Below, piece by piece: positions 6,409-62,943 of a stretch of DNA of 64,000 nt. Source of the DNA: Candidatus Omnitrophota bacterium (GTDB lineage Bacteria > Omnitrophota > Gorgyraeia > Zapsychrales > Fredricksoniimonadaceae); NCBI GenBank assembly GCA_903908245.1, contig CAIVRE010000018.1:66876-130875 (forward strand). Direction: 5' to 3'. The notes under the pieces were generated by a model. It was not told the DNA's origin, did not search any database, and was given only the letters and a program-made list of their open reading frames with translations. The translations under genes were made by a program, and so were the position numbers. Positions within the stretch are counted from its first letter, which is position 1. The number at the start of each line of letters is the position of its first letter.

Positions 6409-6411
6409 GGA

Positions 6412-6500
6412 GCCGATAAAGGTAAACCCGGCGAAAGCCGGGGGCGCAAAGCGACAGACCTAAATCGTCCCGGTGTACCCTTTGTGTGGCCCGTTTGCCT
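6412..6500 (+). ncRNA. probable c-di-GMP-I (GEMM) riboswitch aptamer
   Basis: GGUAAACC-CGGC-GAAA-GCCGG-GGGCGCAAAGCG-ACAGACCUAAAUC...GUUUGCC matches the GEMM consensus GGCAAACC-stem/GAAA/stem-GGACGCAAAGCC-...CCUAAACC, with a P1 closing helix GGUAAAC/GUUUGCC. A hairpin plus U-tract follows at 6641-6674. Confidence 0.55.
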
Positions 6501-6640
6501 TCGTGGCGTTGGGCCCGGCCCTCTTGGGCGCTTGTTTGGGGTTGTTTCTCCGGGTGACACGGTGGCTGCGTTGCCGAAGAGCGAGTAGGGGTCCCCCGTT
6601 CCCCACTTTATCGGTCCCTTGTTATAATACCTATTCATTT

Positions 6641-40007: not shown

Positions 40008-40019
40008 TCATGGTGATGA

Positions 40020-40102
40020 AGAAAGGCAAACTACTTGAAAGAGTAGGGCGCAAAGCCGTGAGCCTGAATCCCGGGGGACCCGGGAAAGGCTGTCTGGTTG
40101 CC
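40020..40102 (+). ncRNA. probable c-di-GMP-I (GEMM) riboswitch aptamer
   Basis: AGGCAAACUACUUGAAAGAGUAGGGCGCAAAGCCGUGAGCCUGAAUCCCGGGGGACCCGGG...GGUUGCC is a near-exact match to the GEMM consensus (GGCAAACC, P1 hairpin with GAAA loop, GGACGCAAAGCC, CCUAAAC). A candidate attenuator lies at 40221-40250 before the ORF at 40360. Confidence 0.6.
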
Positions 40103-40220
40103 GTCGTGAGGACGTAAAGCTCGCTAAAAGAAAGTTTATAGCGAACGAGTACAGCCTTCGACCAAGCTTTGTAGCTTGGGCCGCACCTGTGAGTGTTGCC
40201 TTTGGCTACGATTACCAGAA

Positions 40221-44526: not shown

Positions 44527-44617
44527 CGGATACACGACAGAACGCTGTCGTATTCGTTTTGTATATTAATAATCCGCTGTTTCACCACTTCCTAAGTGGC
44601 AACAATGAACAGGGGGC

Positions 44618-44635
44618 GCGACTTCTTCTTGTCGC
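44618..44635 (+). promoter_or_regulatory. palindromic operator copy 1 (GCGACT-N6-TGTCGC), 15 nt upstream of TATAAT (44651-44656)
   Basis: Same GCGACA-N6-TGTCGC family as the five downstream copies; sits upstream of the nuclease-WYL operon. Confidence 0.5.
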
Positions 44636-44666
44636 GCGTAGATATTTGAGTATAATAAGGATCTAT

Positions 44667-46238
44667 ATGAGTGAATCGTTTGACCAGCAGCAGTCTCATC
44701 ATGATCTTATTTACGACATCCTCGTCGAGAAGAATGCCGTAAAATCTTCCGGGACTCTTACAAAATCAAAATTCTTGAACGGGCTTCAATGTCCAAAACT
44801 TTTGTGGACCTGTTGTAATTCTTCCGAAACAATACCATCTCCTTCTGTCAGGACTCAACAAGTGTTCGATGTCGGGCATCAGGTTGGCGCGCTTGCTGTT
44901 GAGAGATTTCCTGGTGGACGCCATGTTCAAGAGGATGACTTCCTAAAGAATATTGAAGAGACGCAACTGCTTTTGGCTTTGAAAGATCCGCAGCCGATCT
45001 ATGAAGCGGGGATCAAGGCGGGACGGTTGTATTCCCGCGCTGATATCCTGGTTCCGTCGAAGACAGTATCCGGGGCCTGGGACATTGTCGAGGTTAAGTG
45101 CGGGGCCGGTGTTAAAGAAATTTATCTTCAGGACATTGCCTTTCAGCGTTATTGCTACGAACAGGCCGGGGTGAAGATCGGGCGTTGTTTCCTGATGCAT
45201 ATTAATAATGAATATGTTCGATGCGGTTCTATTGATGTTGAAAAGTTTTTTCATCTTGTTGATGTTACCGGTGATATTGTTTCGTTATCCGCGGCTTTGC
45301 CGGAAATTATTGACGGCTTTCTAAAGATCATTGATTTGCCTAAATGTCCTGAAGTTTGTATTGGCCAGTTTTGTGATACGCCGTATTCTTGTCAGATGAA
45401 GTCTTTGTGCTGGGAATTTCTTAAGCCCGGGAATGTGATGGAACTTCGCGGGCGTAAGGAGACGGCATTTAAGTTTTTAGAGCAGGGGATTGAACAGATC
45501 AGGGATATAACAGATCCGGAAAAGTTATCTGACGGGCCCATGATCCAGTATCAGTGTGCTTTGAGTGGAAAGCCTTTTGTCGATCATGAGAAGATCGCGG
45601 GTTTTGTTTCGGGGTTAAAATATCCCTTATATTTTATGGATTTTGAGACATTATTTGAGGCGATCCCGCGTTTTGACGGGACACGGCCTTATCAGCAGGT
45701 GCCATTCCAGTTTTCGGTACATTTACTGACGGGTCCCGGCGTATTTGCCGAGCACTTTGAATTCTTGCATAAAGAGTCGACAGACCCCCGTCCGGCGCTC
45801 TTTAAGGCGTTGCGTGAATGTTTGGATTCTAAAGGTACCATTCTTGCGTATGTCATGAGTTTTGAAAAAGCCAGGATCAGAGAACTTGGGGAAGCTTTTC
45901 CGGAACATGCTGGATGGTGCGCCAATGTTAGTGCCCGGATCGATGACCTTATCATTCCTTTCCGCAGTTTCTTTTATTATCATCCTGCTCAGCAGGGCTC
46001 TTCCTCGTTAAAGAAAGTTTTGCCTGCTCTGGTAGGCAGGGGGTATGAAGGCATGATGATCGCTGATGGGGCTCAGGCAACATCCGAATATGCCCGGGTG
46101 ACCTATGGTAAGGGAGTTGACCCTGTTGATCACGCTAAGGTCTATGAAGACCTTGAGGCCTATTGCGGGCTGGATACCATGGCGATGGTGTACATTTTAG
46201 AGAAGTTGAAACTATTGCAGAAAGGATCATCATTATGA
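44667..46238 (+). CDS. Cas4/RecB-like PD-(D/E)xK nuclease (with Cys cluster) fused to a DEDDy-type 3'-5' exonuclease domain
   Basis: N-terminal half has D...DIVEVKCG (D/EVK), a QxxxY motif (QDIAFQRY) and a C-x3-C-x4-C-x5-C cluster. C-terminal half has FMDFET (exo I DxE), a central acidic motif and YCGLD (YxxxD exo III). ATG at 44667 lies inside track ORF 44559. Confidence 0.55.
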   Translation: MSESFDQQQSHHDLIYDILVEKNAVKSSGTLTKSKFLNGLQCPKLLWTCCNSSETIPSPSVRTQQVFDVGHQVGALAVERFPGGRHVQEDDFLKNIEETQLLLALKDPQPIYEAGIKAGRLYSRADILVPSKTVSGAWDIVEVKCGAGVKEIYLQDIAFQRYCYEQAGVKIGRCFLMHINNEYVRCGSIDVEKFFHLVDVTGDIVSLSAALPEIIDGFLKIIDLPKCPEVCIGQFCDTPYSCQMKSLCWEFLKPGNVMELRGRKETAFKFLEQGIEQIRDITDPEKLSDGPMIQYQCALSGKPFVDHEKIAGFVSGLKYPLYFMDFETLFEAIPRFDGTRPYQQVPFQFSVHLLTGPGVFAEHFEFLHKESTDPRPALFKALRECLDSKGTILAYVMSFEKARIRELGEAFPEHAGWCANVSARIDDLIIPFRSFFYYHPAQQGSSSLKKVLPALVGRGYEGMMIADGAQATSEYARVTYGKGVDPVDHAKVYEDLEAYCGLDTMAMVYILEKLKLLQKGSSL

Positions 46239-49031: not shown

Positions 49032-49062
49032 AAACGGGTAATTGGTTGTCCTTTTTTGAAGG

Positions 49063-49080
49063 CGACAGGATGCTGTCGCC
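49063..49080 (+). promoter_or_regulatory. palindromic operator copy 2 (GCGACA-GGATGC-TGTCGC), 10 nt upstream of TATAAT
   Basis: Read directly; precedes phosphatase A. Confidence 0.5.
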
Positions 49081-49120
49081 TTCATGCTTTATAATCCATG
49101 CAGCTAAAAAGGAGGCTGAT

Positions 49121-50092
49121 ATGGCAGTAAGAAAAGATGATTCGGATGAGGGACGCATGTTTGAGGTTGCTGATTATGGGCGTGAACTTCCAAGGGAGAT
49201 TGATCCCGGCAAGCCGTATTGGGTGTTAGGTGGTAAGGCGGCGTTGTTTGGCATGCCGCATCCGAATCGACTCGCCAGGGATGGTCAGAAGGATCTGTTC
49301 AAAAGACTTCAGAATGCCAAAGTGCAGGTAATTATCAATCTGTCTGGGAGAAGGTATGCGAATCCTGATCCGAATTGGTTTGATTACCAAGAGTTTTTTA
49401 TCACTGACGGTGGTCCGATGGATGGAGAACAGAATATTCTTTGGGCGGCCGTTGCGTATGTTGTGAAGTCATTAAAAGCCGGGAAAAGTGTTGTGATCCA
49501 TTGTGAAGGCGGAACAGGACGCACGGGTGTGACAATAGGGTGCGTGTTGTGCAAGCTTGGAAAAGGAACCGGTCAGGACATCGCGATTTGGTTAAGTGAG
49601 CTTAATAATAGACGCCCCGGGAAACGCTGGCCTGAGGCCTCTATTCAAGGGAAGATCGTTCGGGAATGCTGTCCGGATAAGAAAGGCAATGATCGTCAGG
49701 TGATTGATCCGGCAACGCGCAATATTAAGGAAGTGTCGCTTTTTTCTGATGAAGAAAGAAGCTTTATGTGTACGGTTGTAGCCGTCAATGGAGATCGGAT
49801 TACAGTGCGCCGGCATGATACGGGAGAGGTTATTGAGGTTTCCAGCAGGTTCCTGCAGAAGCAGGAGCGGCCTCGGGAAGAACAAAGGAATGTGCAGGAT
49901 ATATTTGCATCGGCCACTCCGGAAGATCTTCAGGAAAGAGCTCGTCAGTATCCCTATATCCTTTTGGATGAGGTTCAACGGACGCTGGCGCTTTTTGCTA
50001 AGAAGTTGTCTTCAGCGAAGGCTGAGAAACTAAAGAATGATCTTTTAGATATTAATGCACGGATAGAGGTCCTTAAGAAAAAGATCAATTAA
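49121..50092 (+). CDS. Cys-based protein phosphatase-fold protein A (CX5R P-loop HCEGGTGRTG) with ~150 aa C-terminal extension
   Basis: VVIHCEGGTGRTGVTIGC is the PTP/DUSP-type active site. Paralog of 51664-52248 over the N-terminal ~190 aa. ATG inside track ORF 49046; coordinate ±1. Confidence 0.55.
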   Translation: MAVRKDDSDEGRMFEVADYGRELPREIDPGKPYWVLGGKAALFGMPHPNRLARDGQKDLFKRLQNAKVQVIINLSGRRYANPDPNWFDYQEFFITDGGPMDGEQNILWAAVAYVVKSLKAGKSVVIHCEGGTGRTGVTIGCVLCKLGKGTGQDIAIWLSELNNRRPGKRWPEASIQGKIVRECCPDKKGNDRQVIDPATRNIKEVSLFSDEERSFMCTVVAVNGDRITVRRHDTGEVIEVSSRFLQKQERPREEQRNVQDIFASATPEDLQERARQYPYILLDEVQRTLALFAKKLSSAKAEKLKNDLLDINARIEVLKKKIN

Positions 50093-50160: not shown

Positions 50161-50178
50161 GCGACACGATGTTGTCGC
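50161..50178 (+). promoter_or_regulatory. palindromic operator copy 3 (GCGACA-CGATGT-TGTCGC), followed by TGT-TATTAT extended -10
   Basis: Read directly. Confidence 0.5.
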
Positions 50179-50229
50179 TGGCAATTGTTATTATTGCATC
50201 AGGTGAACAAATGATAACAGGAAAGGAAA

Positions 50230-51084: not shown

Positions 51085-51639
51085 GTGCCTATGAAGTGGA
51101 GTGAGTTTGTTCAACGAAAAGAAGCGTATAAAAAGACCTGGGCGTTGCTTAAGGCTGAATATGCGCCCGAGAATCCGGTAAGAAAGTTCCTGGATAAGGC
51201 TTACATGAACATCTTCTTCAATGGAAAGCAAATTGATTTTAATTTAGATCCGTACACTATTGCACGTGACACTCCGGATTTCTTCGTTAAGAATAAATAT
51301 TTTAATGAATATCTTGAGTTGATTAAGACATGTAAGGCATTGGAAGATTTGTCTTATAAAGAGAAAAAGACGAAGGTTACTAACGAATTCGATCACAATG
51401 GAACTATAAGGAAGAAAGTCAGTCGATTAGATATGAAAAAGAAAGAACTTCAGCAGTTTGATGTCAATCAACTTGAAGTGGTGCCTAATCGCGCGGAAAT
51501 GATCGTCTCGACGATAGATATGGATATTATTCAGAATATCAAGGGGTCAAAGTTCTGCGATCAAGAGGCAACCTTAATGAGTCGTGCCTCAATACGGGTG
51601 ATCCTTGTTGGCGGTGATAAATTGGGATATCCATGGTAA
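51085..51639 (+). CDS. hypothetical protein X1 (paralog of 52414-52905)
   Basis: MKWSEF... and the C-terminal IDMDIIQNIKGSKFCDQEATLMSRASIRVIL align with the paralog's MTWDEF... and VDMDLIQQIKNSPYCDQEKTMMRPASINVVL. Confidence 0.4.
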   Translation: MPMKWSEFVQRKEAYKKTWALLKAEYAPENPVRKFLDKAYMNIFFNGKQIDFNLDPYTIARDTPDFFVKNKYFNEYLELIKTCKALEDLSYKEKKTKVTNEFDHNGTIRKKVSRLDMKKKELQQFDVNQLEVVPNRAEMIVSTIDMDIIQNIKGSKFCDQEATLMSRASIRVILVGGDKLGYPW

Positions 51640-51663: not shown

Positions 51664-52248
51664 ATGCCTGTTATGACTGAAGAACTGGATGAGCCGCGCA
51701 TCTATGAGATCGCTGATTATGGAAAACCTCTGCCGCGGGTTATGAATCCTTTGAGGGCGTATCGTGTCCTTGACGGCAACGCGTCGTTATTCGGGATGCC
51801 GCATCCGTCCATTCTTAAGGAAATAGACCGCAAGCAGTTGTTTGCTCAATTGTATGAGGACGGAGTTCGTTATCTTATTAATCTGACTAAAGAAAATTCA
51901 GGTGCTTCATATTCCGACAGGATTTTATTATCATCGTTTTGTCCTGTTACGGATCAGGGACCAAAAGGGGCTATTGAAAAGACTATGCTTTTATCGGGCG
52001 TAGATAGCGCGGTAGCGGCTTTAAAGAATGGCGAGGGGGTTGTGATCCATTGTTGGGGAGGAACCGGGCGTACGGGGACGGCCATCGGGTGTATTTTACG
52101 CAAGCTGGGTAAAGGCTCCGGTGTAGAGATTGTGAATTGGCTTGGTGAGTTGAATCAAAGGCGTGAAAGGCATTGGCCGGAGTCACCGGTACAGGCTGAA
52201 GTGGTTAGGGAGTGTCAGCCGGGGGAAGATTTCTTTGATAGGCTGTAA
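51664..52248 (+). CDS. Cys-based protein phosphatase-fold protein B (HCWGGTGRTG)
   Basis: VVIHCWGGTGRTGTAIGC; the N-terminus IADYGKPLPRVMNP...LFGMPHPS is paralogous to protein A. Confidence 0.55.
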   Translation: MPVMTEELDEPRIYEIADYGKPLPRVMNPLRAYRVLDGNASLFGMPHPSILKEIDRKQLFAQLYEDGVRYLINLTKENSGASYSDRILLSSFCPVTDQGPKGAIEKTMLLSGVDSAVAALKNGEGVVIHCWGGTGRTGTAIGCILRKLGKGSGVEIVNWLGELNQRRERHWPESPVQAEVVRECQPGEDFFDRL

Positions 52249-52330
52249 TCTTTAAGGCAGAGAATTTTGAACGCTGTTGTTATTAAGGCCGGGCGACATG
52301 AAAGTGTTATCCGGTTTTTCTTTTTACTAA

Positions 52331-52348
52331 ACGACAGGATGCTGTCGC
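52331..52348 (+). promoter_or_regulatory. palindromic operator copy 4 (ACGACA-GGATGC-TGTCGC)
   Basis: Read directly; preceded by a hairpin resembling the 50117 terminator. Confidence 0.45.
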
Positions 52349-52413
52349 GTGAGTGTTTTAAGGTTATGTACGGTGTTGATCCGGGCAGGCAGGTGAATCG
52401 GGCGGGGGGTGTT

Positions 52414-52905
52414 ATGACATGGGATGAGTTTCTGGCAGAAAAGAAGTTGTATGTTCAATCCTGGAAGAAAATGAAAGAGGGCGCTACAGAAGATATGCAG
52501 AAGTTTCTGAGCAAGTCCTGGATCGTGGTGTATTGCAAACAGCAGTTTGATATTGATGCGGATTTTATGACTGTTTTTAATGAATGTCCTTCATTCTTTC
52601 AAAATGTGCCAAGGTTCACCAGGATCAAAGCGCTCTGTGAAGAGATGAAGACGCTTGAGAAACGCATTAAGCGGGAGAAAGAAAACCATAGTGACCTGCT
52701 GGAAGATAAGAAAGATCTTCAAGAAGAAATAGCGGAGTTGTGTCCGGGGGAGCTTCCAGTTGATGATTCCTGGAGGATTGAGGTCAGGTTTCCTACTGTA
52801 GATATGGATCTGATCCAACAGATCAAGAATTCTCCGTATTGTGATCAGGAAAAGACAATGATGCGCCCTGCCTCTATTAATGTGGTGTTGAAGAACGTAC
52901 TGTAA
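52414..52905 (+). CDS. hypothetical protein X2 (paralog of 51085-51639)
   Basis: See X1. The start was chosen by paralog alignment; alternatives are ATG 52366 and the track start 52267. Confidence 0.4.
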   Translation: MTWDEFLAEKKLYVQSWKKMKEGATEDMQKFLSKSWIVVYCKQQFDIDADFMTVFNECPSFFQNVPRFTRIKALCEEMKTLEKRIKREKENHSDLLEDKKDLQEEIAELCPGELPVDDSWRIEVRFPTVDMDLIQQIKNSPYCDQEKTMMRPASINVVLKNVL

Positions 52906-53319: not shown

Positions 53320-53337
53320 GCGACAGGATGTTGTCGC
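53320..53337 (+). promoter_or_regulatory. palindromic operator copy 5 (GCGACA-GGATGT-TGTCGC), followed by TGT-TATACT extended -10
   Basis: Read directly. Confidence 0.5.
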
Positions 53338-53383
53338 GGCCAATTGTTATACTTGATCCCGGAAGACAAAAACGGGAGAGGTT

Positions 53384-54841: not shown

Positions 54842-55157
54842 TGCCCGTATAGCGCATATTAACCGTTATTTTGCTGTCTATTTAACTGTTATTTCGGTGG
54901 TCCTTGTTTTGGTCATTTCCGGATCTCCCGTTGCTATTTCATTGTCACATTTCGATAGAGATATGCCTGTTGGTTTCGGCAAGGGGATGGCGCACGGGTT
55001 TTTGCTGTCTGTGAACCTTATCCGTTCGATCTTTGATGTTCGGACAGGTATTTACCAGATACCCAACACTGGAATGGGATACAACGCAGGGTTCTTTCTG
55101 GGCATTATTTTATGGTTCGCTATCGGGCGTATGGGGGAAGAAACGAAGGCGACATGA
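54828..55157 (+). CDS. small hypothetical membrane protein (109 aa)
   Basis: ATG 54828 inside track ORF 54792; two predicted TM helices; overlaps the J-protein 3' end. Confidence 0.35.
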   Translation: MSLFDARIAHINRYFAVYLTVISVVLVLVISGSPVAISLSHFDRDMPVGFGKGMAHGFLLSVNLIRSIFDVRTGIYQIPNTGMGYNAGFFLGIILWFAIGRMGEETKAT

Positions 55158-55166
55158 GGCTGTCGC
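55149..55166 (+). promoter_or_regulatory. palindromic operator copy 6 (GCGACA-TGAGGC-TGTCGC)
   Basis: Read directly; precedes the long downstream operon. Confidence 0.5.
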
Positions 55167-55212
55167 TGGTTAATGCTAAGCTCTTATACATAATTAATAC
55201 TCAGGTGATTGC

Positions 55213-55617
55213 ATGCAAGAGAGAATCTTGAAGAAGCGAAAAACGTATAAGCCTATCGACGCGGAAACGCTGGGGCGTAGCCTTTTTAAGATCCACACGT
55301 GTAAGAAACGAGGAAAGTATTCGCCGGCCGTTAAAGTCATTGCCGGTGATATATGGGAGATGCTTGGTGGGATGCGGGCAATGGCGCAGGAGTTTGTTAA
55401 GAATCCGACGCTTGAGGTAATGGAAGAACTCAGATTTTGGTTATTGGATAGTGATCATCATTGGAATTCATTAAAGAATATTTGCAGCAGGAGCAGAGGG
55501 CGGCGGAGTTTGGATCGCTTGGCTAAAGAATATCCGCAGTGGTTGTTGCTGCTACCTTTGGAAGATGTAGCAGAACGGTTATGGTGGCTTGAAGAAGAAG
55601 GAGATGAGGGAATATGA
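55213..55617 (+). CDS. hypothetical protein (134 aa), translationally coupled to the AAA+ ATPase
   Basis: Stop/start overlap (ATGA) with the next gene. Confidence 0.35.
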   Translation: MQERILKKRKTYKPIDAETLGRSLFKIHTCKKRGKYSPAVKVIAGDIWEMLGGMRAMAQEFVKNPTLEVMEELRFWLLDSDHHWNSLKNICSRSRGRRSLDRLAKEYPQWLLLLPLEDVAERLWWLEEEGDEGI

Positions 55618-56984
55618 AAAATGATCAGGAATACTTCGATAACTACTTTTGCATCAGTGAACTGCTGATCGAGAAAGATCTGCTTGTCGATAAGTTGTGG
55701 GAGGGCAAAAACGATACCGGATATTTGGCCAGCGCACACTATCAGGCAAGGAAGGCCATTAACACGCTTAATTCTTTGATACGCGATGAAGAAAAGCGCT
55801 TGAGTCATATTATTCGTAAGGCTGAGTCGCAAGGAACGATTTTTTCTTTTGAATCGTTCACAAGAAAGATGGAGTTGAGTGATTTTGAGAAACGACTGAT
55901 GCTTTTCTTTCTGCATCTTGATCTGTTTTGCAGTGGCAGCGTCGGTTTTCCAAGAAGAAAGCTGGCGTTGATCCTTGATTGCGAAGAAACAGCGGTATCC
56001 CGTGCGAGAACGTTGCTGGATCTGTTTCCAGGTAGTGCTTTATACAAGAAGAATATTCTGTCTGCGATCGACATCGGCGGAAGTGAGGTTCGTTTGGCTG
56101 AGAGCATGCGGGATGCTTTGAGAAAACTTGTGTCAGGTCAGGAGGCGGATCTTGTTATGACTGAGACTACCCGGGAGGAGATTGAGGCTGCCGGGGTTGT
56201 TTATGAGCCCGAATACAGCATGGAAGACGTGTCGCTTCCCGGGCAGATCAAAGAACAGGTTTTAATGCATTTGAACACGCATGGACGGCTGGCATCGTTA
56301 GGAGTCATGGATAAAGTGCGGCGCGGTCGTGGGCTTTGCATGTTGTTTTATGGTCCTCCAGGGACAGGGAAAAGCATGCTTTCTCATGCCATAGCACGTC
56401 ATTTAGGAAAAAAGGTTCTTCAGGCATCTCCGGCGCAGATCAAAGACCGCTGGGTAGGCCAGACAGACAAGAATATTGCCGCTTTATTCAAGGTGGCTAA
56501 AGAAAAGAATTATGTCTTGTGTCTGGATGAGGTCGATACGCTTTTATTTGAACGAAGCGAGGCGTCACGTTCATGGGAGATCTCGCAGACGAATACGTTT
56601 CTTGAAGAAGTAGAAAGATTTGACGGGATTTTAGTAATGACAACAAATCTGGAAGGGCGGCTTGATCCAGCGATTGAGCGCCGGGTGGCGTTGCGTGTCC
56701 GTTTTGATGCGCCTGACCATTGCGTACGGGAGACTATCTGGCAGAAACAGATCCCGTCGACTGTTAAGTGTGGGGAAGATATTAATTGGGCTCGTCTGGG
56801 AATGCAGTATTCATTTACCGGCGGTTATATCAAGAATGCCGTCATGTCCGCGTTGCGTCATATGCTTTCACGGGAAAGTCAGGTGCTTGAGATGGAGGAT
56901 CTTGTTTATGGAGCCGAGAGTGAAATGAAGGGGCTTTTACGAAGTTCCGCTAAAGCTCCAATGGGTTTTGCAACTAGAGGATAA
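55614..56984 (+). CDS. classic-clade AAA+ ATPase with ~230 aa N-terminal domain of unknown function
   Basis: Walker A LFYGPPGTGKSM, Walker B VLCLDEVD and second region of homology/Arg finger (TTNLEGRLDPAIERRV). Confidence 0.75.
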   Translation: MKNDQEYFDNYFCISELLIEKDLLVDKLWEGKNDTGYLASAHYQARKAINTLNSLIRDEEKRLSHIIRKAESQGTIFSFESFTRKMELSDFEKRLMLFFLHLDLFCSGSVGFPRRKLALILDCEETAVSRARTLLDLFPGSALYKKNILSAIDIGGSEVRLAESMRDALRKLVSGQEADLVMTETTREEIEAAGVVYEPEYSMEDVSLPGQIKEQVLMHLNTHGRLASLGVMDKVRRGRGLCMLFYGPPGTGKSMLSHAIARHLGKKVLQASPAQIKDRWVGQTDKNIAALFKVAKEKNYVLCLDEVDTLLFERSEASRSWEISQTNTFLEEVERFDGILVMTTNLEGRLDPAIERRVALRVRFDAPDHCVRETIWQKQIPSTVKCGEDINWARLGMQYSFTGGYIKNAVMSALRHMLSRESQVLEMEDLVYGAESEMKGLLRSSAKAPMGFATRG

Positions 56985-56990
56985 AAATCT

Positions 56991-57179
56991 ATGAATCTTA
57001 AGGAATGGCAGAAGATGCTTGGCAAGAAGAAGTTCCCGAGTTTGCACGGTGTTTATGATGCCATTGATATGGATGGGCGGATTGTGGGGCGGACGGTCTA
57101 CATCAAGGGCAGGAAGGTCATGACGATTGCACCAATATGGCCGGAAGAAGAAATTACGATAGACGACGAAAAGAAATAA
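56991..57179 (+). CDS. small hypothetical protein (62 aa)
   Basis: ORF between the AAA gene and murA2 in a tight operon. Confidence 0.3.
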   Translation: MNLKEWQKMLGKKKFPSLHGVYDAIDMDGRIVGRTVYIKGRKVMTIAPIWPEEEITIDDEKK

Positions 57180-57192
57180 TAGACAGGAACTT

Positions 57193-58482
57193 ATGGAAAA
57201 ACTTGTGATCAATGGCGGAGTGCCGCTTAAAGGTGAAGTATTCATTTCTGGATCGAAGAACGCTTCTTTGCCGGCCATGGCCGCGACATTGTTAACGGAT
57301 GAGCCTTGTGTTCTTAAGAATGTGCCAGTGGTTTCGGATATTAACACAATGAGTAATCTTTTAATGACTCTGGGTAAGGATGTTAAACGGGATAAGGATG
57401 CTTTGATCATCACATCAAAAGGCCGGTTGAAGCCATTGGCTGATTATCGCCTTGTATCAACGATGCGCGGGTCAGTGTGCGTGCTCGGCCCCCTTCTGGC
57501 TCGACTTGGAGAAGCGCGGGTGGCTTTGCCTGGCGGATGTGTTATTGGTGTCAGGCCGGTCGACTTGCATCTTAAAGGCTTTGAAAGTCTTGGGGCCAGG
57601 ATCGATATTGAGGGTGGATATATTATCGCCAAGTCTTCAAGGCTTAAAGGGGCACGCATGTATCTTGCAGGGGCCATGGGGCCTTCTGTTCTTGGCACAG
57701 CAAATGTGATGATGGCCGCAACCCTGGCCACAGGCGAGACAACCATTGAGGGGGCGGCCTGTGAGCCGGAGATCAAGGACCTCGCCGATCTTTTGAACCT
57801 TATGGGGGCGAAAATAAGCGGCCACGGCAGCCCTACGGTGGTCATTGAAGGTGTTAAACGACTGCACGGGGTTGAGTACAAGGTTTCAGCTGATCGCATT
57901 GAGGCCGGAACATTCATTCTATTGTCAGCCATGACACGGGGAAATGTGATCGTTCGCGGCGTTGAACATCATCGTCTTTTGTCTGTGGTGGATGCGTTGA
58001 ATGAAGCTGGTGTTGCATGTGAATGCCGCGGAGCTTCAGTGCGCGTAAAGTCACCAGCAAGATTTAAGCCAGTGAATGTAACAACCCATCCTTATCCGGG
58101 GTTTCCGACAGATCTTCAGGCTCAGTACATGGCCATGATGACGCTGGCAGATGGGGTGAGTTCTGTTAGGGATACAGTTTTTCCGGACAGATTCATGCAT
58201 CTTGCTGAACTAGCGCGCATGGGGGCCAAGGTTCGTCGTGAAGGGGGCGTGGCGGTCATTGAAGGGGTTAAGGAGCTCAAGGGTGCCCCTGTGATGGCGT
58301 CGGATTTAAGGGCGTCTGTGGCGCTGGTTATGGCCGGTGTTGTGGCTAAAGGGCAGACAGAGGTCCGCCGTATATACCATCTCGACCGTGGATATGAGGG
58401 CATTGACCGGAAATTGATCGATTTAGGGGCTAAAGTAAGACGGGAACAGGATAAAGTTGTGCCTAATGAGGAGATCGGATAA
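57193..58482 (+). CDS. murA: UDP-N-acetylglucosamine 1-carboxyvinyltransferase paralog (MurA2)
   Basis: About two-thirds identical by eye to the MurA at 2017-3279 across the full length. Retains [13 protein letters not shown] with the Cys and carries a ~10 aa C-terminal extension. Confidence 0.9.
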   Translation: MEKLVINGGVPLKGEVFISGSKNASLPAMAATLLTDEPCVLKNVPVVSDINTMSNLLMTLGKDVKRDKDALIITSKGRLKPLADYRLVSTMRGSVCVLGPLLARLGEARVALPGGCVIGVRPVDLHLKGFESLGARIDIEGGYIIAKSSRLKGARMYLAGAMGPSVLGTANVMMAATLATGETTIEGAACEPEIKDLADLLNLMGAKISGHGSPTVVIEGVKRLHGVEYKVSADRIEAGTFILLSAMTRGNVIVRGVEHHRLLSVVDALNEAGVACECRGASVRVKSPARFKPVNVTTHPYPGFPTDLQAQYMAMMTLADGVSSVRDTVFPDRFMHLAELARMGAKVRREGGVAVIEGVKELKGAPVMASDLRASVALVMAGVVAKGQTEVRRIYHLDRGYEGIDRKLIDLGAKVRREQDKVVPNEEIG

Positions 58483-59321
58483 TGGACGAACAATTCTTTA
58501 CAAAATATTCTCCGTCTGAACTGTATTCATCTGTTGGGTGCGGTGGTGAGTACATAAGCTATGAAGATCAGAATTTGGCTCACTTGGATGTCCCTTTTCT
58601 TTTTCCGTCTGAAGCGCTATTTAAACTTAAATCGTTCATCGAGATATGTCAGCGGCATCATATGGATGATAGTGCTGTAACACGGGATTATGAAGAAGTC
58701 TGGGTTGCCGGATCTTTGAAAGCGCGTGGAGGGTTCTATTCCGGTCGTCCGTGCGGTTGCTGGCGCTTCTTTAATGAGAACGGGCAATGCGCGGAAGTGG
58801 TGCATTTGGATGTCGAGGGGAATATTTACAGTGAACACGTATTGTTTTATTCAAATGGACAGAGAATGTTTTCGTTTTGTCACCAAGGGGACGTTTTGTC
58901 TGGCCCTTTGATGGAGTGGTTTTCAAACGGGCAGATTAAACGGGAAGAACGGTTTCGTGAGGGTAAGCACAATGGCATGTCTCGCAGTTGGCATGAAAAT
59001 GGCCGTCTTGAAATGGAGCGGGAGTTTGAAAATGACACGCCGGTCGGAGGGTATACACTTTGGGATCAGGATGGCCTTGTGATCATGGAAAGGATCCCGG
59101 TAGAGTACACGAAAGTCTTTCAGGAAAAAGAATACACCAGAAAAGGTCAGCTTAAACGGATACGGTCATATCTGGCGGATTATCAGATGCACGGCGAAGA
59201 AACTTCATATTATGACTACGAGCGTCAAGTTATGCGGGAGCAGCCGGAAGTGAAATATTACTTAAATAATAAGGAAGTAAACAAGGTCGAATATTTTGCG
59301 CGGACAGGGGGCGTTTTGTAA
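58482..59321 (+). CDS. MORN-repeat protein (YwqK-like)
   Basis: Repeated WFSNGQIKREERFREGKHNGMSRSWHENGRLEMEREFEND-type units; the start overlaps the murA2 stop. Confidence 0.5.
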   Translation: MDEQFFTKYSPSELYSSVGCGGEYISYEDQNLAHLDVPFLFPSEALFKLKSFIEICQRHHMDDSAVTRDYEEVWVAGSLKARGGFYSGRPCGCWRFFNENGQCAEVVHLDVEGNIYSEHVLFYSNGQRMFSFCHQGDVLSGPLMEWFSNGQIKREERFREGKHNGMSRSWHENGRLEMEREFENDTPVGGYTLWDQDGLVIMERIPVEYTKVFQEKEYTRKGQLKRIRSYLADYQMHGEETSYYDYERQVMREQPEVKYYLNNKEVNKVEYFARTGGVL

Positions 59322-60037
59322 TGGAAAATTCATCTTTCGATATGCACGAAGAAATGTTTATCCCGATGCTTTCTCAAAAGGAATTTATTCCTCTTGATCA
59401 GGAGAAGGTTGCCCATGAACGCCGGTGTTATGTCATGACACCAGCACTGTCGAGCAAGTGGTCAGCTCTTTGGGATCTTATGAAGCTATATTCTGATGCC
59501 GGGCTTTATGATGATGCTATTGCCGTCGGTCGTGAAGTGCTGTCAGATCATGTTCTTGAAGAATATCACGCGAATGCTTTGTTCAGGATGGGGCAGTTGA
59601 GTGAGCACAAGAATGATTTTGATATGGCGTTAAAGTTCTATTTAGAAAGCATTGATAAAGAAGCTGCAAATCCTGAACTTGGGTACTGGCAGCATAATAA
59701 CGCAGGATTCTGTTATTTAATGAAGCAGGAATTTGAGCGTGCAGAACACCATTGCCGCATAGCACTGGAGTTTGATGAACAGAATTGGAAGGGTTGGAAG
59801 CAGCGTTGGGGTGATCCGCATCAGTGGAATGCCTGGAAGAACATGGGTGCTGCGATGGAATATACCGGTCGTTATAGGGAGGCCGCATCTTTTTATACAG
59901 CTGCAATCAAATTCAGCCGCGGCACTGAACGGGCTGTTTTGCATCTTAGGCGTCTATTGAAACGTCATTCCGATGTGGCGGTTTACTGGAAAGAGCCGGT
60001 TCAAGATCTTTTGACATATTACAATGTAACTGTTTGA
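59321..60037 (+). CDS. hypothetical TPR-like helical repeat protein
   Basis: Composition (A/L/Y/W-rich helical repeats); overlapping start. Confidence 0.35.
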   Translation: MENSSFDMHEEMFIPMLSQKEFIPLDQEKVAHERRCYVMTPALSSKWSALWDLMKLYSDAGLYDDAIAVGREVLSDHVLEEYHANALFRMGQLSEHKNDFDMALKFYLESIDKEAANPELGYWQHNNAGFCYLMKQEFERAEHHCRIALEFDEQNWKGWKQRWGDPHQWNAWKNMGAAMEYTGRYREAASFYTAAIKFSRGTERAVLHLRRLLKRHSDVAVYWKEPVQDLLTYYNVTV

Positions 60038-60046
60038 CGGAAAGAG

Positions 60047-60895
60047 GTGTTTGTGGGTAAGAAGTCGGTATATTTTTCATCGCTATTGCCAGTGAGATTT
60101 CCTGAATTCTTCAAGAACTTGTCCGGTATTTTGGATTCCACGAAGGTCAAGTGGGGACTATTGCCTCATACCAATGATATCTGGTGCCGGGATTACATGC
60201 CCGTTCGCGTATCTCCGCGCAAGTTTGTTCAGTTTAAGTATGCGCCGTCATATTTAATGACGAAGAAATGGCGGTCAACGATCACTGATCCCGTCAAAGT
60301 GTGTGAGGCTGTCGGCATCAAGGCTGATCCCTGGGATTTTGTGATAGATGGCGGGAATGTTGTCCGGTTCGGATCTAAAGCGATCATGACCGAGCGGATT
60401 TATAGCGAGAATCCGGAGTATTACCCGGAGATATTCTCGGATGTTCTTAAGGATTTTCTGAAGGTTGATGAGCTTATTATGATTCCCGAGGAGCCGTGGG
60501 ATCCTTACGGGCATGCAGACGGATGTGTGAGGTTTCTTAATGAGAACACGGTCATCATCCATGAGCTGCATAAAAGTCATCCGGGATTTGATCGCGCTCT
60601 AAGAAACGTTTTAAAGGAGCATCGTCTGGAGTATGTTGAAATGCCGTATTTTATTGATAATGATCCAAAGCATAAGGATTCGGCAGTAGGGAACTATGTG
60701 AATTATCTTGAAGCGGGGAAAGTAATTGTAGTGCCTGCTTATATGGGTTATTCTAAACAAAATGAGCGCGCGTTGTCAGTGTTGAAGAGCGTATTCAAAG
60801 GGAAGAAGATTGTTCAGATTGAGTCAACGCCTATTGCCAAACTCGGCGGGGTGTTGAATTGTGTGAGTTGGGATCTTGGAAAGAAGGAGTGGTAA
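60047..60895 (+). CDS. agmatine deiminase / PAD_porph-family guanidino-modifying enzyme-like protein
   Basis: WCRDYMP, IDGGNVV, GHADGCVRF and C-terminal GGVLNCVSWD match the family motifs WxRDxGP, DGGN, GHxDxxxxF and GGxxHCxTQ (His to Asn before the catalytic Cys). Confidence 0.5.
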   Translation: MFVGKKSVYFSSLLPVRFPEFFKNLSGILDSTKVKWGLLPHTNDIWCRDYMPVRVSPRKFVQFKYAPSYLMTKKWRSTITDPVKVCEAVGIKADPWDFVIDGGNVVRFGSKAIMTERIYSENPEYYPEIFSDVLKDFLKVDELIMIPEEPWDPYGHADGCVRFLNENTVIIHELHKSHPGFDRALRNVLKEHRLEYVEMPYFIDNDPKHKDSAVGNYVNYLEAGKVIVVPAYMGYSKQNERALSVLKSVFKGKKIVQIESTPIAKLGGVLNCVSWDLGKKEW

Positions 60896-60898
60896 GGA

Positions 60899-61411
60899 AT
60901 GAATGTTGAAGATGCCGTATTTAATGACTTGTTCCTATATGATTCTCCTCAGAAGAAACAGGCTCAAATAGCCAAAGATCATAATGTTACTGAGGATGAC
61001 GTTAGAAGCATTCGTGAAAAATACCATTTAACTGAAGCGGTAAAAGAGATTAAGAGAATTCGGGCTTTGTGGTCCAATAAGAAGGATTTTGGATTATTTA
61101 CGAAGTTTTATAAATGGTACAGTCGGGGTATTTGTGATTATTGTGGGATATCTCAGGATGTGGTTAAGAAAATTGTCGAGAGTGGGAAGTTGACATCAAA
61201 ACGATTTCCAGCTGTTGATAAGAAATGTCAAAGAGGGCGAAGCAGGGGAATTTCATTAGAGGTTGATAAAAGGAAGCCAGGTGAGGGATATCTTCAAAAA
61301 AACTGTGCTCTGGTATGTTACTTTTGTAATAATGATAAAAGTGATGTGTTTAATGATGAGCAATATATGCTTTTTCTTGTTAATAGAAGAAAGTTTTTAG
61401 AAAATCTATGA
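60899..61411 (+). CDS. Cys-cluster protein with degenerate HNH-like core
   Basis: CDYCG ... LEVDKRKPGEG ... NCALVCYFCNNDKS follows HNH topology (CxxC ... DHxxP ... GG ... NLxxLCxxCNxxK) but has Lys in place of the catalytic His. Confidence 0.3.
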   Translation: MNVEDAVFNDLFLYDSPQKKQAQIAKDHNVTEDDVRSIREKYHLTEAVKEIKRIRALWSNKKDFGLFTKFYKWYSRGICDYCGISQDVVKKIVESGKLTSKRFPAVDKKCQRGRSRGISLEVDKRKPGEGYLQKNCALVCYFCNNDKSDVFNDEQYMLFLVNRRKFLENL

Positions 61412-62271
61412 AAAATACAATCGCTTTAGTCTACGACTTCGACGGAACACTGTCCTCTAAATCCATGCAGGAGTATACGGTTCTGCCGAATTTGGGTGTT
61501 GAAGATATGGACCGGTTTTGGGAGTCCATCAATGAGGAGGGCAAGAAGCACAACGCTGAGATGAGTCTTGTCTGGATGCGAAGGATCATCGAGCTTGCCA
61601 GGCAGGGTGAGAAGAGGATCACACGGGAATATTTTAAAAAATGCGGCCGGGATATCGAGTATTTTCCGGGTGTCGTGCAATTCTTTAAAGCTATTAACCG
61701 GCATGTGAGCAAGGCGTCCCGGGGAAGAATGAAGGTGCGGCATTATATCGTGTCCGCGGGGCTCAAGGAGATCCTTGACGGGATAAGCATTCGCAAAGAA
61801 TTTCATAACATTTTCGGATCTGAATATTTCTATGATGAGAACGGCCGGCCTCATTTCCCCAAGGTGGTCATTACGGACACGATCAAGACGCAATATCTTT
61901 TCCGCATCAACAAGGGCAAAGAGCTTTTGAGCGACAGTATCAATGAACACATGGATGAAGAAGACCGTCCGATCCCGTTCGAGAATATCATTTATGTGGG
62001 TGATGGGCTGACCGATGTTCCGGCCATGACGTTGACCCGCAAGTCAGGCGGCCATTCGATCGCGGTATATCGTCCCGGTTATAAACGGGGCTTGCAGACG
62101 TGTAAGCGTTTGCTGGCGGCCCCCAGGGTGGACTTTGCGGCGCCAGCTGATTATCGCAAGAACAGCGAACTCTTTCAGTATGTCACGAGCGTTCTGGATT
62201 TGATCGTAAAGAAATACGATTTCGGGTGTAAGAGTGAACAGAATCGTAAGAGTTTAAGAATGGGGCAGTAA
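61408..62271 (+). CDS. HAD-superfamily hydrolase
   Basis: Motif I VYDFDGTLS and motif IV YVGDGLTDVPAM. Confidence 0.65.
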   Translation: MKNTIALVYDFDGTLSSKSMQEYTVLPNLGVEDMDRFWESINEEGKKHNAEMSLVWMRRIIELARQGEKRITREYFKKCGRDIEYFPGVVQFFKAINRHVSKASRGRMKVRHYIVSAGLKEILDGISIRKEFHNIFGSEYFYDENGRPHFPKVVITDTIKTQYLFRINKGKELLSDSINEHMDEEDRPIPFENIIYVGDGLTDVPAMTLTRKSGGHSIAVYRPGYKRGLQTCKRLLAAPRVDFAAPADYRKNSELFQYVTSVLDLIVKKYDFGCKSEQNRKSLRMGQ

Positions 62272-62275
62272 TAGC

Positions 62276-62899
62276 ATGTTAAAGATAGATAAAGTATTTG
62301 GGTATGGTGAGGACGGGTTAACCTTGCGCTTCTTTACGACGCAACTGGAAGACTTCTTGAAAATTGTTGAGGATTCTTCTGCCCCGGATGATTGCAAGTT
62401 CTTTTACAGGCCTTCTTTTGGGAGAGGCGGAAGGAATTCAAAATCAACCTTTGGTGAGTTTGACGGGATTTTGTCGACTCCCCGGAAGATTTATCTTATT
62501 GAAAGTAAGTGCTGGGCGAATTCCAGAAAACCGTTCTTATTAGATAAAGCTCAGATGTTAAGGCACGAGATATTTAAGAAATACTATGAAGTGTGGGAAA
62601 AGGGTACGAAGTGGGAGGAAATTAAGCTTGAGTTCCTTGGCAAGCTTCTTCCTTCCGGGGATAGCCTGTTGGCAAAGAATTTATCGAGGATCCTGGATCA
62701 GTTGATGTCGGATACGGGAGCCAGAAAAGAGATCATGAATGTTTTGATCTTTTTTGTTCCTGAAGGGGTAACCCGCAAAGCTTCTTTTTCCGTAGCTCCG
62801 CAAGTTAAAGAAAAGTTCACAGTGCTTTTTTGTCGTGGCGCTAGTGCATCTTTTGAGCTTTTCGAGAAGCCGGATCCCTGCGACATAACGCTGTCGTAG
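62276..62899 (+). CDS. hypothetical protein with possible PD-(D/E)xK-like core
   Basis: GEFDGIL...IYLIESKCW fits a D...(D/E)xK pattern; weak. Confidence 0.3.
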   Translation: MLKIDKVFGYGEDGLTLRFFTTQLEDFLKIVEDSSAPDDCKFFYRPSFGRGGRNSKSTFGEFDGILSTPRKIYLIESKCWANSRKPFLLDKAQMLRHEIFKKYYEVWEKGTKWEEIKLEFLGKLLPSGDSLLAKNLSRILDQLMSDTGARKEIMNVLIFFVPEGVTRKASFSVAPQVKEKFTVLFCRGASASFELFEKPDPCDITLS

Positions 62900-62943
62900 C
62901 TGAATGTTATTCTTTGAATGATGAGAAAAGGCGCTAATTTAAT

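Follow-up and report, generated by a model that had tools for sequence, protein, structure and literature searches.

A second MurA gene in a putatively mobile island of an Omnitrophota bacterium

MurA (UDP-N-acetylglucosamine 1-carboxyvinyltransferase) catalyses the first committed step of bacterial cell-wall synthesis. The enzyme is the target of fosfomycin and of the A2 lysis protein of phage Qbeta, and a higher dosage of murA gives higher tolerance to fosfomycin. Low-GC Gram-positive bacteria are well known for two active MurA paralogues, MurAA and MurAB (or MurA and MurZ), in ancient, lineage-wide, chromosomal pairs; to our knowledge, textbooks describe second MurA copies in the Firmicutes alone. 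The Listeria enzyme has a literature of its own (PMC8959180). Here we analyse a second MurA, called MurA2, encoded in a stretch of 64,000 nucleotides from Candidatus Omnitrophota bacterium (GenBank assembly GCA_903908245.1, contig CAIVRE010000018.1, positions 66,876 to 130,875 of the forward strand). This whole stretch, 'the window' below, also holds a housekeeping copy, MurA1. As in the Firmicute pairs, two apparently active MurA enzymes would thus share a genome. Unlike those pairs, MurA2 occurs in few closely related populations, on a recombinase-bearing island, in changing gene contexts and sometimes in truncated form.

Mobile elements are known to carry extra copies of target genes, such as the plasmid-borne ileS2/mupA, dfr and sul. 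MurA2 resembles these in being a second essential enzyme on an accessory element, but it has no substitution of the insensitivity type. The other comparisons concern regulators with a WYL domain. BrxR and CapW are repressors of the WYL type found in phage-defence islands, and the sites that they bind in promoters are inverted repeats (PMC9122601, PMC9122589). In Actinobacteria, PafBC acts by sigma adaptation on hybrid promoters that have a -26 element, tGTCgg(N10)tA(N3)T, and lack a -35 (PMC8635444). DriD of Caulobacter crescentus is a WYL activator that is itself activated by single-stranded DNA (ssDNA; PMC9186387), and its box is ATACGAC(N7)GTCGTAT (PMC10853764).

What would be new here is a MurA that is shuffled as cargo of a WYL-controlled island in an uncultured phylum, together with an island-wide promoter type resembling that of PafBC. 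The enzyme itself is an ordinary MurA, of a known kind. In a preprint on 176 complete Omnitrophota genomes, murA is given as present in all of them, a statement of presence and not of copy number (bioRxiv 10.64898/2026.06.07.730766). On balance we lean towards the view that MurA2 is a paralogue of MurA1, carried as exchangeable cargo by WYL-regulated islands, where it serves as an inducible backup or extra dose of MurA.

MurA2 as an enzyme and its descent

The Pfam profile PF00275 covers MurA2 at full length, aligning residues 7-408 of the protein with positions 2-417 of 417 (E=5.6e-100). On the murA equivalog model TIGR01072 MurA2 scores 523.6 bits and MurA1 533.0 bits, both above the cut-off of 392.7; on NF006873 MurA2 scores 547.2 against a cut-off of 297, and on NF009470 (PRK12830) 441.7, under the cut-off of 552. 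Solved MurA structures are about 48-50% identical to it. Like the MurA proteins of E. coli, E. cloacae and P. aeruginosa, it has the full two-domain match, the catalytic and substrate-binding residues, and the cysteine that fosfomycin alkylates. It differs from these standard enzymes in being a second copy in an accessory island and in a nine-residue C-terminal tail.

MurA2 keeps every catalytic residue. The Cys loop, LPGGC, is intact, and Cys116 (its position cross-checked by alignment with the P. aeruginosa MurA structure 5bq2) is kept in every sequence of the MurA2 clade. With an E. coli sequence as reference, equivalents of K22, N23, R91, C115, R120, D305, D369, L370, R371 and R397 were all located in MurA2, and the same ten are present in its three orthologue clusters. 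Those clusters and MurA2 also keep 109 of the 112 columns that are invariant in 117 housekeeping MurA sequences of Omnitrophota. The three changes (L47V, S111A and A376V) are all conservative, and the Ala at the S111 position is shared with Pseudomonas MurA. All residues that bind UDP-N-acetylglucosamine (UDP-GlcNAc) and phosphoenolpyruvate (PEP) are unchanged. An earlier sequence-only reading of the window had pointed to the retained Cys loop, an observation borne out by the loop and by the other catalytic residues; inactivating substitutions, which it had named as evidence against its proposals, were not seen in MurA2. Judged by its residues, MurA2 is a catalytically competent UDP-GlcNAc enolpyruvyl transferase, and an ordinary MurA rather than a new type of protein.

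In the MurA of Mycobacterium and Chlamydia, Asp replaces the loop Cys and makes the enzyme intrinsically insensitive to fosfomycin. This Cys-to-Asp change is absent from all MurA2-clade sequences. Since the Cys is retained, no intrinsic fosfomycin insensitivity is expected of MurA2.

The C-terminal tail, KVVPNEEIG (58455-58484 region), is the one feature peculiar to MurA2. It differs in the 88%-identical orthologue P0003, and it is encoded by DNA (GAGGAG...TAATG) that serves the next gene as its ribosome-binding-site region. In locus L152 an identical tail and junction precede a different gene, one for a TPR protein. We treat the tail as a by-product of the junction, apparently arising by read-through into the ribosome-binding-site region of the following gene. 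A functional motif, for instance a TPR-binding end of the EEVD type, was rejected as the primary reading on two grounds: the tail is a translated ribosome-binding site, and it differs in P0003.

How closely is MurA2 related to the resident enzyme? MurA1 lies in the order prfA-prmC-murA-trpG-trpD-trpC-trpF, and the same seven genes, ordered alike, surround a 91%-identical MurA in the Omnitrophota metagenome-assembled genome JADFZK010000026 (L009); by this synteny MurA1 is the housekeeping copy. BLASTP aligns the two proteins over 420 residues without a gap, with 286 of 420 identical (68%) and 85% positives. Their nucleotide identity is 65%, with saturated synonymous sites; GC at third codon positions (GC3) is 0.50 in MurA2 and 0.61 in MurA1. 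These figures agree with the earlier description of the two as co-linear and about two-thirds identical, and they contradict its heading, which called the copies near-identical. Recent gene conversion or duplication between them is ruled out by the nucleotide identity and the saturated synonymous divergence (dS).

We built a neighbour-joining tree of 121 sequences, 120 of them database hits chosen by similarity to MurA2. The MurA2 clade has a bootstrap of 100, and its union with a 56-member clade that includes MurA1 (P0012) is equally supported (bootstrap 100). The 56-member clade is monophyletic to the exclusion of MurA2 (bootstrap 89), and MurA2 is therefore no recent duplicate of the resident gene. 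Mean distance from MurA2 to the 56-member clade is 0.42, against 0.17 within that clade, and the excess distance to the outgroup gives MurA2 a rate about 1.5-fold faster. On the evidence of the tree, the split of MurA2 from MurA1 is old and predates the radiation of the 56-member clade, and the gene stems from within Omnitrophota. The sequence-only reading had suggested a phylogeny of MurA pairs as a check on its view of MurA2 as a within-lineage duplicate. The tree upholds the origin in Omnitrophota and speaks against a recent duplication of the resident gene. The Cys loop, from which that view had been argued, is uninformative about origin, since nearly all MurA proteins retain it.

The gene has been maintained. 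Ratios of nonsynonymous to synonymous divergence (dN/dS) are 0.038 against the copy in L008 (97% identical, dS 0.37), 0.060 against that in L152 (94% identical, dS 0.63) and 0.13 against that in L153. The values of 0.04-0.06 point to strong purifying selection.

Its distribution is narrow. Among 5.8 billion protein clusters, orthologues fall into only four clusters at 90% identity. Only P0001 and P0002 (97%; P0002 is the representative of MurA2's own cluster) and P0003 (88%) are more than 70% identical to it, and every further match is a housekeeping Omnitrophota MurA of 420 aa whose identity does not exceed 70%. Intact copies are found on more than 10 contigs from several samples and represent at least four 90%-identity clusters. 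Thus the duplicated murA is not a universal housekeeping feature of the lineage; universality is what the sequence-only reading had said would count against it. Among the matches listed for GTDB species representatives there was no MurA2, a suggestive result only, the pattern used (QAQYMAMM) being generic; one useful locus emerged, the MurA1-type L009. A back-translated C-terminal signature (VRREQDKV) gave 54 chance matches and no MurA2 in JGI metagenome contigs, in a scan that missed the JGI member P0242 (L153). Neither protein patterns nor the C-terminal DNA signature found MurA2 in IMG/VR.

MurA2 is matched by phrog_25097 (E=2.5e-154). A phage origin was considered and rejected: a tblastn search of 50,697 phage records yielded no hit above 50% identity, those found lie in unannotated fragments or host records and are most likely host DNA, and IMG/VR gave nothing. 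Homologues of murA occur in 146 of 72,556 PLSDB plasmid records, all at most 51% identical and mostly on chromids, megaplasmids or mis-assigned chromosomes.

Gene contexts and island promoters

MurA2 is found in three settings. In the window, in L001-L008 and in L153 the order is AAA-62aa-MurA2-MORN-TPR. In P0003 the gene follows a serine recombinase and an XRE gene and housekeeping genes adjoin; this recombinase/HTH pair is the same one that stands at the left edge of the window's island. In L152, a differently built island, the order is MORN/DUF6745-97aa-MurA2-TPR, with MurA2 truncated. The L152 copy lacks its first 37 codons, including Lys22 and Asn23, and has in-frame stops upstream. It joins its TPR gene directly through TAATG, the MORN gene that separates the two in the window being absent from this position. 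That TPR protein is only 72% identical to the one in the window, and the 94% identity of the MurA2 beside it therefore speaks for a swap of the murA segment among diverged islands. We take the L152 copy as evidence that the cargo was exchanged recently and is decaying.

Six islands whose AAA proteins are 36-63% identical to that of the window share a backbone with it (DUF2779, WYL, AAA, the ORF (open reading frame) of about 62 aa, MORN/DUF6745, TPR, PAD and metallo-beta-lactamase). None of the six carries MurA, and MurA2 is therefore accessory cargo of this island family and not part of its core. The slot that follows AAA and the small ORF in MurA-less islands holds, for example, an o212-family protein or a DnaB_C protein. 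Variable positions near AAA in the sister islands hold a 99-aa Sigma70_r4 protein (L091 6274-6573) and DnaB_C proteins of 286-307 aa (L093 9598-10521; the contig of P0136, ERZ1426688). These positions look like a place set aside for essential host functions, whether copied whole or as fragments. Taken together, the patchy distribution, the three contexts and the adjacent recombinase point to a mobile island as the carrier of MurA2.

Within the window MurA2 is the fourth of ten genes in a unit (55213-62899) whose members are spaced by -4 to +13 nt, and which is bounded by the predicted promoters at 55150-55182 and 62881-62913. Consensus scans found neither terminators nor sigma-70 promoters in excess within it. 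MurA2 begins 13 nt past the stop of the 62-aa ORF and has its own AGGA ribosome-binding site. The supposed translational coupling to the AAA ATPase upstream is not seen, for the AAA gene ends at 56984 and the 62-aa ORF, with the spacer, lies between. Coupling to the MORN gene downstream, proposed in the same place, agrees with the overlap of stop and start codons there. The AAA protein itself was tried as IetA/IteA and rejected, its scores of about 101-107 bits being far under the 510-bit cut-off; the similarity is weak.

What might control this unit? The palindrome CGACA-N6-TGTCG occurs in seven exact copies. They lie within 44.5-62.9 kb, each of them on the plus strand and upstream of a gene. 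With one mismatch allowed 1.4 copies are expected per window, and the observed count was not reached in any of 100 shuffles; across 1.6 Mb of unrelated loci the background at one mismatch is about 0.44 per 10 kb. All seven are followed by one pyrimidine, ten unspecified nucleotides and TAnnnT. The combination TGTCG-N11-TAnnnT occurs eight times in the window against 1.2 expected (no shuffle in 100 reaches eight); seven of these belong to the palindromes. The eighth, which has no left half-palindrome, lies at 58811-58832 inside the MORN gene and could be chance or an internal promoter. No TTGACA-like hexamer stands at the -35 of the seven promoters. The palindrome sits at about -24 to -39, four of the seven have an extended -10 (TGn), and where the start codon is clear the palindrome lies about 58-68 nt upstream of it. 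The same motif in the same register is found in the distant islands L089, L091, L093, L094 and L152, and also in L008 and L153; it is conserved across islands whose AAA proteins are as divergent as noted above.

An intrinsic terminator or RNA hairpin was considered as well. Some copies are terminator-like; the fixed register with TAnnnT and the distance to the start codon favour a promoter element. The candidate binder is the HTH-WYL-WCX protein encoded in the island. Its best matches of known structure are PafBC (6sj9, E=1.9e-5) and DriD (8tp8, E=2.6e-4), and BrxR and CapW structures gave no match at E<=1. Accordingly, we read the palindrome as a predicted WYL-dependent promoter element.

The comparison with PafBC is close in layout. 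The distance from the GTC element to TAnnnT is identical, both promoter types lack a -35, and the island encodes nearby a WYL regulator whose best match of known structure is PafBC. In the island, however, the element forms one half of a perfect palindrome, and a symmetric homodimer like that of DriD is implied, not a PafB/PafC heterodimer. The host is an Omnitrophota bacterium, the regulon within the window is confined to the island, and activation would be assigned by analogy. With DriD the island motif shares palindromic CGAC...GTCG half-sites, and at two island sites the GTCGTA flanks; DriD (327 aa) and the island WYL protein (339 aa) have the same domain architecture and detectable sequence similarity. 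The spacer between CGAC and GTCG is 8 nt in the island motif and 7 in the DriD box, and DriD promoters keep both -35 and -10 (PMC9186387) where island promoters have no -35. BrxR and CapW offer a likeness of another sort, a WYL regulator located with candidate defence genes and inverted repeats in promoters. The island motif nevertheless recurs seven times in a fixed -10 register, not once at the regulator's own promoter. Because the spacing is of the PafBC type and there is no -35, we favour, by analogy, an ssDNA-triggered activator mode as in DriD and PafBC (PMC9186387). The sequence-only reading had placed MurA2 under an island operator. The recurrent palindrome is real and one copy does lie upstream of the unit; its layout fits the promoters of WYL activators at least as well as a repressor operator.

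Possible roles of MurA2

In the mechanism that we consider somewhat better than an even bet, MurA2 would be cotranscribed in its ten-gene unit behind a -35-less promoter, with the palindrome placed where PafBC-type WYL regulators contact DNA. We infer the remaining steps, from the binder of the motif and its mode of action to the inducing signal and the benefit of extra MurA, as follows. The island HTH-WYL-WCX protein would switch the promoter of the MurA2 unit and six others. The signal would be nucleic acid, for example ssDNA from damage or from the replication of a phage or other element. Induced MurA2 would then add to or back up MurA1 at the first committed step of peptidoglycan synthesis, and the extra enzyme may raise tolerance to agents that titrate or inactivate MurA. 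What this mechanism builds on was observed by computation: MurA2 belongs to the MurA family with its active site intact, is under purifying selection and diverged long ago; its distribution is patchy, its context varies, and the motif has the spacing described.

Several points weigh against it. MurA2 has no active-site or surface change of its own that points to escape from an inhibitor, and with Cys116 kept it is not intrinsically insensitive to fosfomycin. The truncated copy in L152 means that MurA2 can be lost without obvious consequence and is dispensable in some backgrounds. The position of the motif is equally compatible with a BrxR-like repressor, and the four promoters (of seven) that have an extended -10 might need no activator. 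The basal placement of MurA2 could partly reflect its faster rate in a neighbour-joining tree of similarity-picked hits. No empty integration site was recovered for the island and its boundaries were not found; its description as an integrative element rests on the adjacent recombinase, composition and patchy distribution.

If the regulation is as proposed, the promoter logic of PafBC and DriD reaches the PVC-related Omnitrophota, and the supply of a cell-wall precursor is tied to a nucleic-acid stress signal. Promoters of this type have so far been characterised only for the DNA-damage regulators PafBC in Actinobacteria and DriD in an alphaproteobacterium, and the regulatory motif may be a more valuable lead than MurA2. 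If MurA2 protects against a MurA inhibitor, mobile target duplication would act as resistance or anti-lysis defence. If neither is true, MurA2 is an ordinary extra enzyme copy on an island. What is carried between related accessory islands of this uncultured, host-dependent phylum is a MurA that is intact and under selection.

Other roles deserve consideration. Decoy, anti-lysis, resistance and non-peptidoglycan functions have no direct support from the sequence, in which nothing hints at a changed substrate specificity of MurA2, at insensitivity to inhibitors or at a partner in a pathway. The first alternative is dedicated immunity: MurA2 would be an induced replacement or decoy against a specific MurA inhibitor, and thus an anti-lysis or resistance gene rather than a general backup. 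Candidate inhibitors are a single-gene lysis protein of a phage, comparable to A2 of Qbeta, an antibiotic resembling fosfomycin, and UNAG-3P from zeta toxins. The targeting of MurA by A2 and fosfomycin and the effect of murA dosage fit this idea, as do the defence-type features of the island, namely its WYL regulator, its PDC-S34 HAD protein and an AAA protein weakly similar to IetA. Some related islands adjoin Shedu-like (SduA_C), PRTase-CE or ubiquitin-like Bub genes, and the variable slots of the sister islands hold the host-type functions DnaB_C and Sigma70_r4. In PADLOC-DB v2, however, MurA2 has no match, and strong matches in its neighbourhood are limited to the WYL regulator and the HAD protein (PDC-S34, 6e-95). 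The retained Cys116, the few and conservative substitutions at conserved columns, and the lack of any credible relative in phages or IMG/VR also count against immunity. E. coli L138 is the site of the A2-resistance mutation, and the equivalent position is Ile in MurA1 and MurA2 alike. We know of no MurA inhibitor for Omnitrophota. Our literature searches found no precedent for murA in defence or genomic islands and no paper on the candidate defence family PDC-S34. We regard dedicated immunity as unlikely.

Alternatively, a host murA may have been captured by chance and be on its way to being lost. The 5'-truncated L152 copy without Lys22/Asn23, the very narrow distribution and the six related islands that do without MurA2 are what such hitchhiking would leave behind. 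Against this stands long-term purifying selection, with dN/dS of 0.04-0.06 over dS of 0.37-0.66; the invariant columns are kept despite saturated synonymous sites, and the gene is intact across the clusters and contigs counted above. Chance capture is thus quite unlikely in our judgement.

A broader version of the immunity idea takes the whole island as an inducible 'spare parts' locus, in which an ssDNA-sensing WYL activator would induce additional copies of the host's phage targets. In the window this would be MurA; in the sister islands, a fragment of sigma-70 region 4 or a DnaB-like helicase domain. MurA2 would on this account block lysis by phage proteins that inhibit MurA. The idea is very doubtful. 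If true, it would amount to target back-up, a defence principle undescribed for peptidoglycan synthesis.

It is highly improbable that MurA2 serves a product other than peptidoglycan, whether by making enolpyruvyl-UDP-GlcNAc for it or by using another nucleotide sugar, in concert with the PAD-fold, HAD and metallo-beta-lactamase proteins nearby. Cotranscribed enzymes without an assigned substrate leave room for such a pathway, and the L152 island carries radical SAM, amidohydrolase and glycosyltransferase-9 genes. But PAD, TPR, MORN and metallo-beta-lactamase genes also occur in islands without MurA and are therefore independent of MurA2; no MurB-like reductase, sugar-transfer or glycosyltransferase gene lies in the MurA2 unit or nearby; and the UDP-GlcNAc- and PEP-binding residues and the TIGR01072 score are those of a standard MurA. 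Finally, a vertical, lineage-wide duplication like that of the Firmicute paralogues, for which the familiarity of such pairs is the one argument, is scarcely credible and is contradicted by distribution and context as we read them: four clusters against at least 56 in the MurA1-type clade, island surroundings that vary between copies, and an NF009470 score below its cut-off.

The island and its features

Table 1. Positions of the genes, predicted promoters and other features discussed (window coordinates except in the last line).
Feature	Position	Strand	Remarks
MurA1, housekeeping MurA, 420 aa	2017..3279	+	PF00275 ~E=1e-100, TIGR01072, gene context
Large serine recombinase, 630 aa	42078..43970	-	Left edge of low-GC island; PF00239, PF07508, PF13408; phrog_95 integrase E=8.8e-81
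tRNA-Ser(GGA)	42210-42300	+	Adjoins serine recombinase
XRE-type HTH protein, 85 aa	44220..44477	+	PF01381 E=1.9e-16
Predicted promoter, palindrome + -10	44535..44567	+	Upstream of DUF2779-WYL unit
DUF2779 protein, backbone gene	44559..46238	+	PF11074 E=6.9e-39; 60% identity in L093
HTH-WYL-WCX regulator, 339 aa	46235..47254	+	Candidate palindrome binder; Pfam HTH_11/WYL/WCX; PADLOC WYL E=1.2e-34
Predicted promoter, palindrome + -10 (TATAAT)	49063..49095	+	Upstream of DSP-phosphatase gene
Predicted promoter, palindrome + -10	50162..50194	+	Upstream of 70-aa ORF/Metallophos/phosphatase unit
Predicted promoter, palindrome + -10	52332..52364	+	
Predicted promoter, palindrome + -10	53321..53353	+	Upstream of DnaJ-domain gene
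Predicted promoter of MurA2 unit	55150..55182	+	Palindrome CGACATGAGGCTGTCG (55150-55165), C + N10, -10 TAAGCT (55177-55182), no -35 hexamer
Gene 1 of unit, 134 aa	55213..55617	+	No family match; kept upstream of AAA in related islands; 41% identity to L089 homologue
Classical-clade AAA ATPase, 456 aa, backbone gene	55614..56984	+	PF00004 E=3.8e-24; homologues 36-63% identical in other Omnitrophota islands
Conserved 62-aa ORF between AAA and MurA2	56991..57179	+	Follows AAA in related islands; 54-56% identity, L089 and L093
MurA2, second UDP-N-acetylglucosamine 1-carboxyvinyltransferase, 429 aa	57193..58482	+	Island-borne; PF00275, TIGR01072
MORN-repeat protein, 279 aa	58482..59321	+	PF07661; start overlaps MurA2 stop by one base (TAATG 58480-58484)
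TPR protein, 238 aa, backbone gene	59321..60037	+	55% identity in L089, 72% in L152
PAD_porph / agmatine-deiminase-fold protein, 282 aa, backbone gene	60047..60895	+	PF04371 E=8.7e-27; homologues L091, L093
170-aa ORF	60899..61411	+	No family match
HAD-IB phosphatase-like protein, 287 aa	61408..62271	+	PDLC05002 (PDC-S34) E=6e-95, nearly end to end; PF12710
207-aa ORF	62276..62899	+	Last gene of unit
Predicted promoter, palindrome + -10	62881..62913	+	Before metallo-beta-lactamase gene (start 62944, runs off window)
Truncated MurA2 copy	L152 9956-11134		ENA ERZ4223863 NODE_1892; 94% identical over residues 38-429

GC content is 0.49-0.55 in the first 20 kb of the window and 0.43-0.47 in most of the island, from about 42 kb. 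The order leading into the island is rRNA operon, tRNA-Ser, serine recombinase, XRE HTH, DUF2779, WYL regulator and then a run of plus-strand genes. Within the window this run encodes a MORN protein, two DSP-type phosphatases, a PPP-type phosphatase, a DnaJ-domain protein, AAA, MurA2, and the MORN, TPR, PAD-fold and HAD proteins. Past the window follow genes for a metallo-beta-lactamase, DUF3142, a UvrD helicase and a PD-(D/E)XK protein; the right end of the island lies beyond the window, and plus-strand genes run on for at least 10 kb downstream. The recombinases of related islands are a resolvase (small, with a MerR/HTH_17 protein), a tyrosine integrase or a serine recombinase.

At the left edge the 3' end of the recombinase ORF (stop 42078, minus strand) overlaps the plus-strand tRNA-Ser(GGA) gene. 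Short inverted repeats lie just before the tRNA, at 42129-42151/42173-42195 and 42185-42198/42202-42215. The overlap region, 42078-42300, could be the attachment-site region, or the ORF could be over-extended.

Some listed gene starts merit correction. DUF2779 is listed from 44559, inside the promoter predicted for it, and probably begins downstream of 44567; its homologues align from residue 34 at the earliest. Too far upstream, probably, are also the starts given as 49046 and 52267; the ATG at 49121, for instance, lines up with the start of the paralogue at 51664. The two DSP-type phosphatases of the island (Tc-R-P / PTP-SAK; 49046-50092 and 51664-52248) share stretches of DNA about 70% identical. 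A family of ORFs of 184, 212 and 136 aa (51085-51639, 52267-52905 and L006 12160-12570) also fills the slot after AAA and the 62-aa ORF in L089.

Two c-di-GMP-I riboswitch aptamers were also seen in the window. One, at 6411-6578, spans 168 nt against a model of 87 positions, which suggests a large insertion. The other, at 40015-40105, lies between the 5S rRNA and a 556-aa ORF at 40360.

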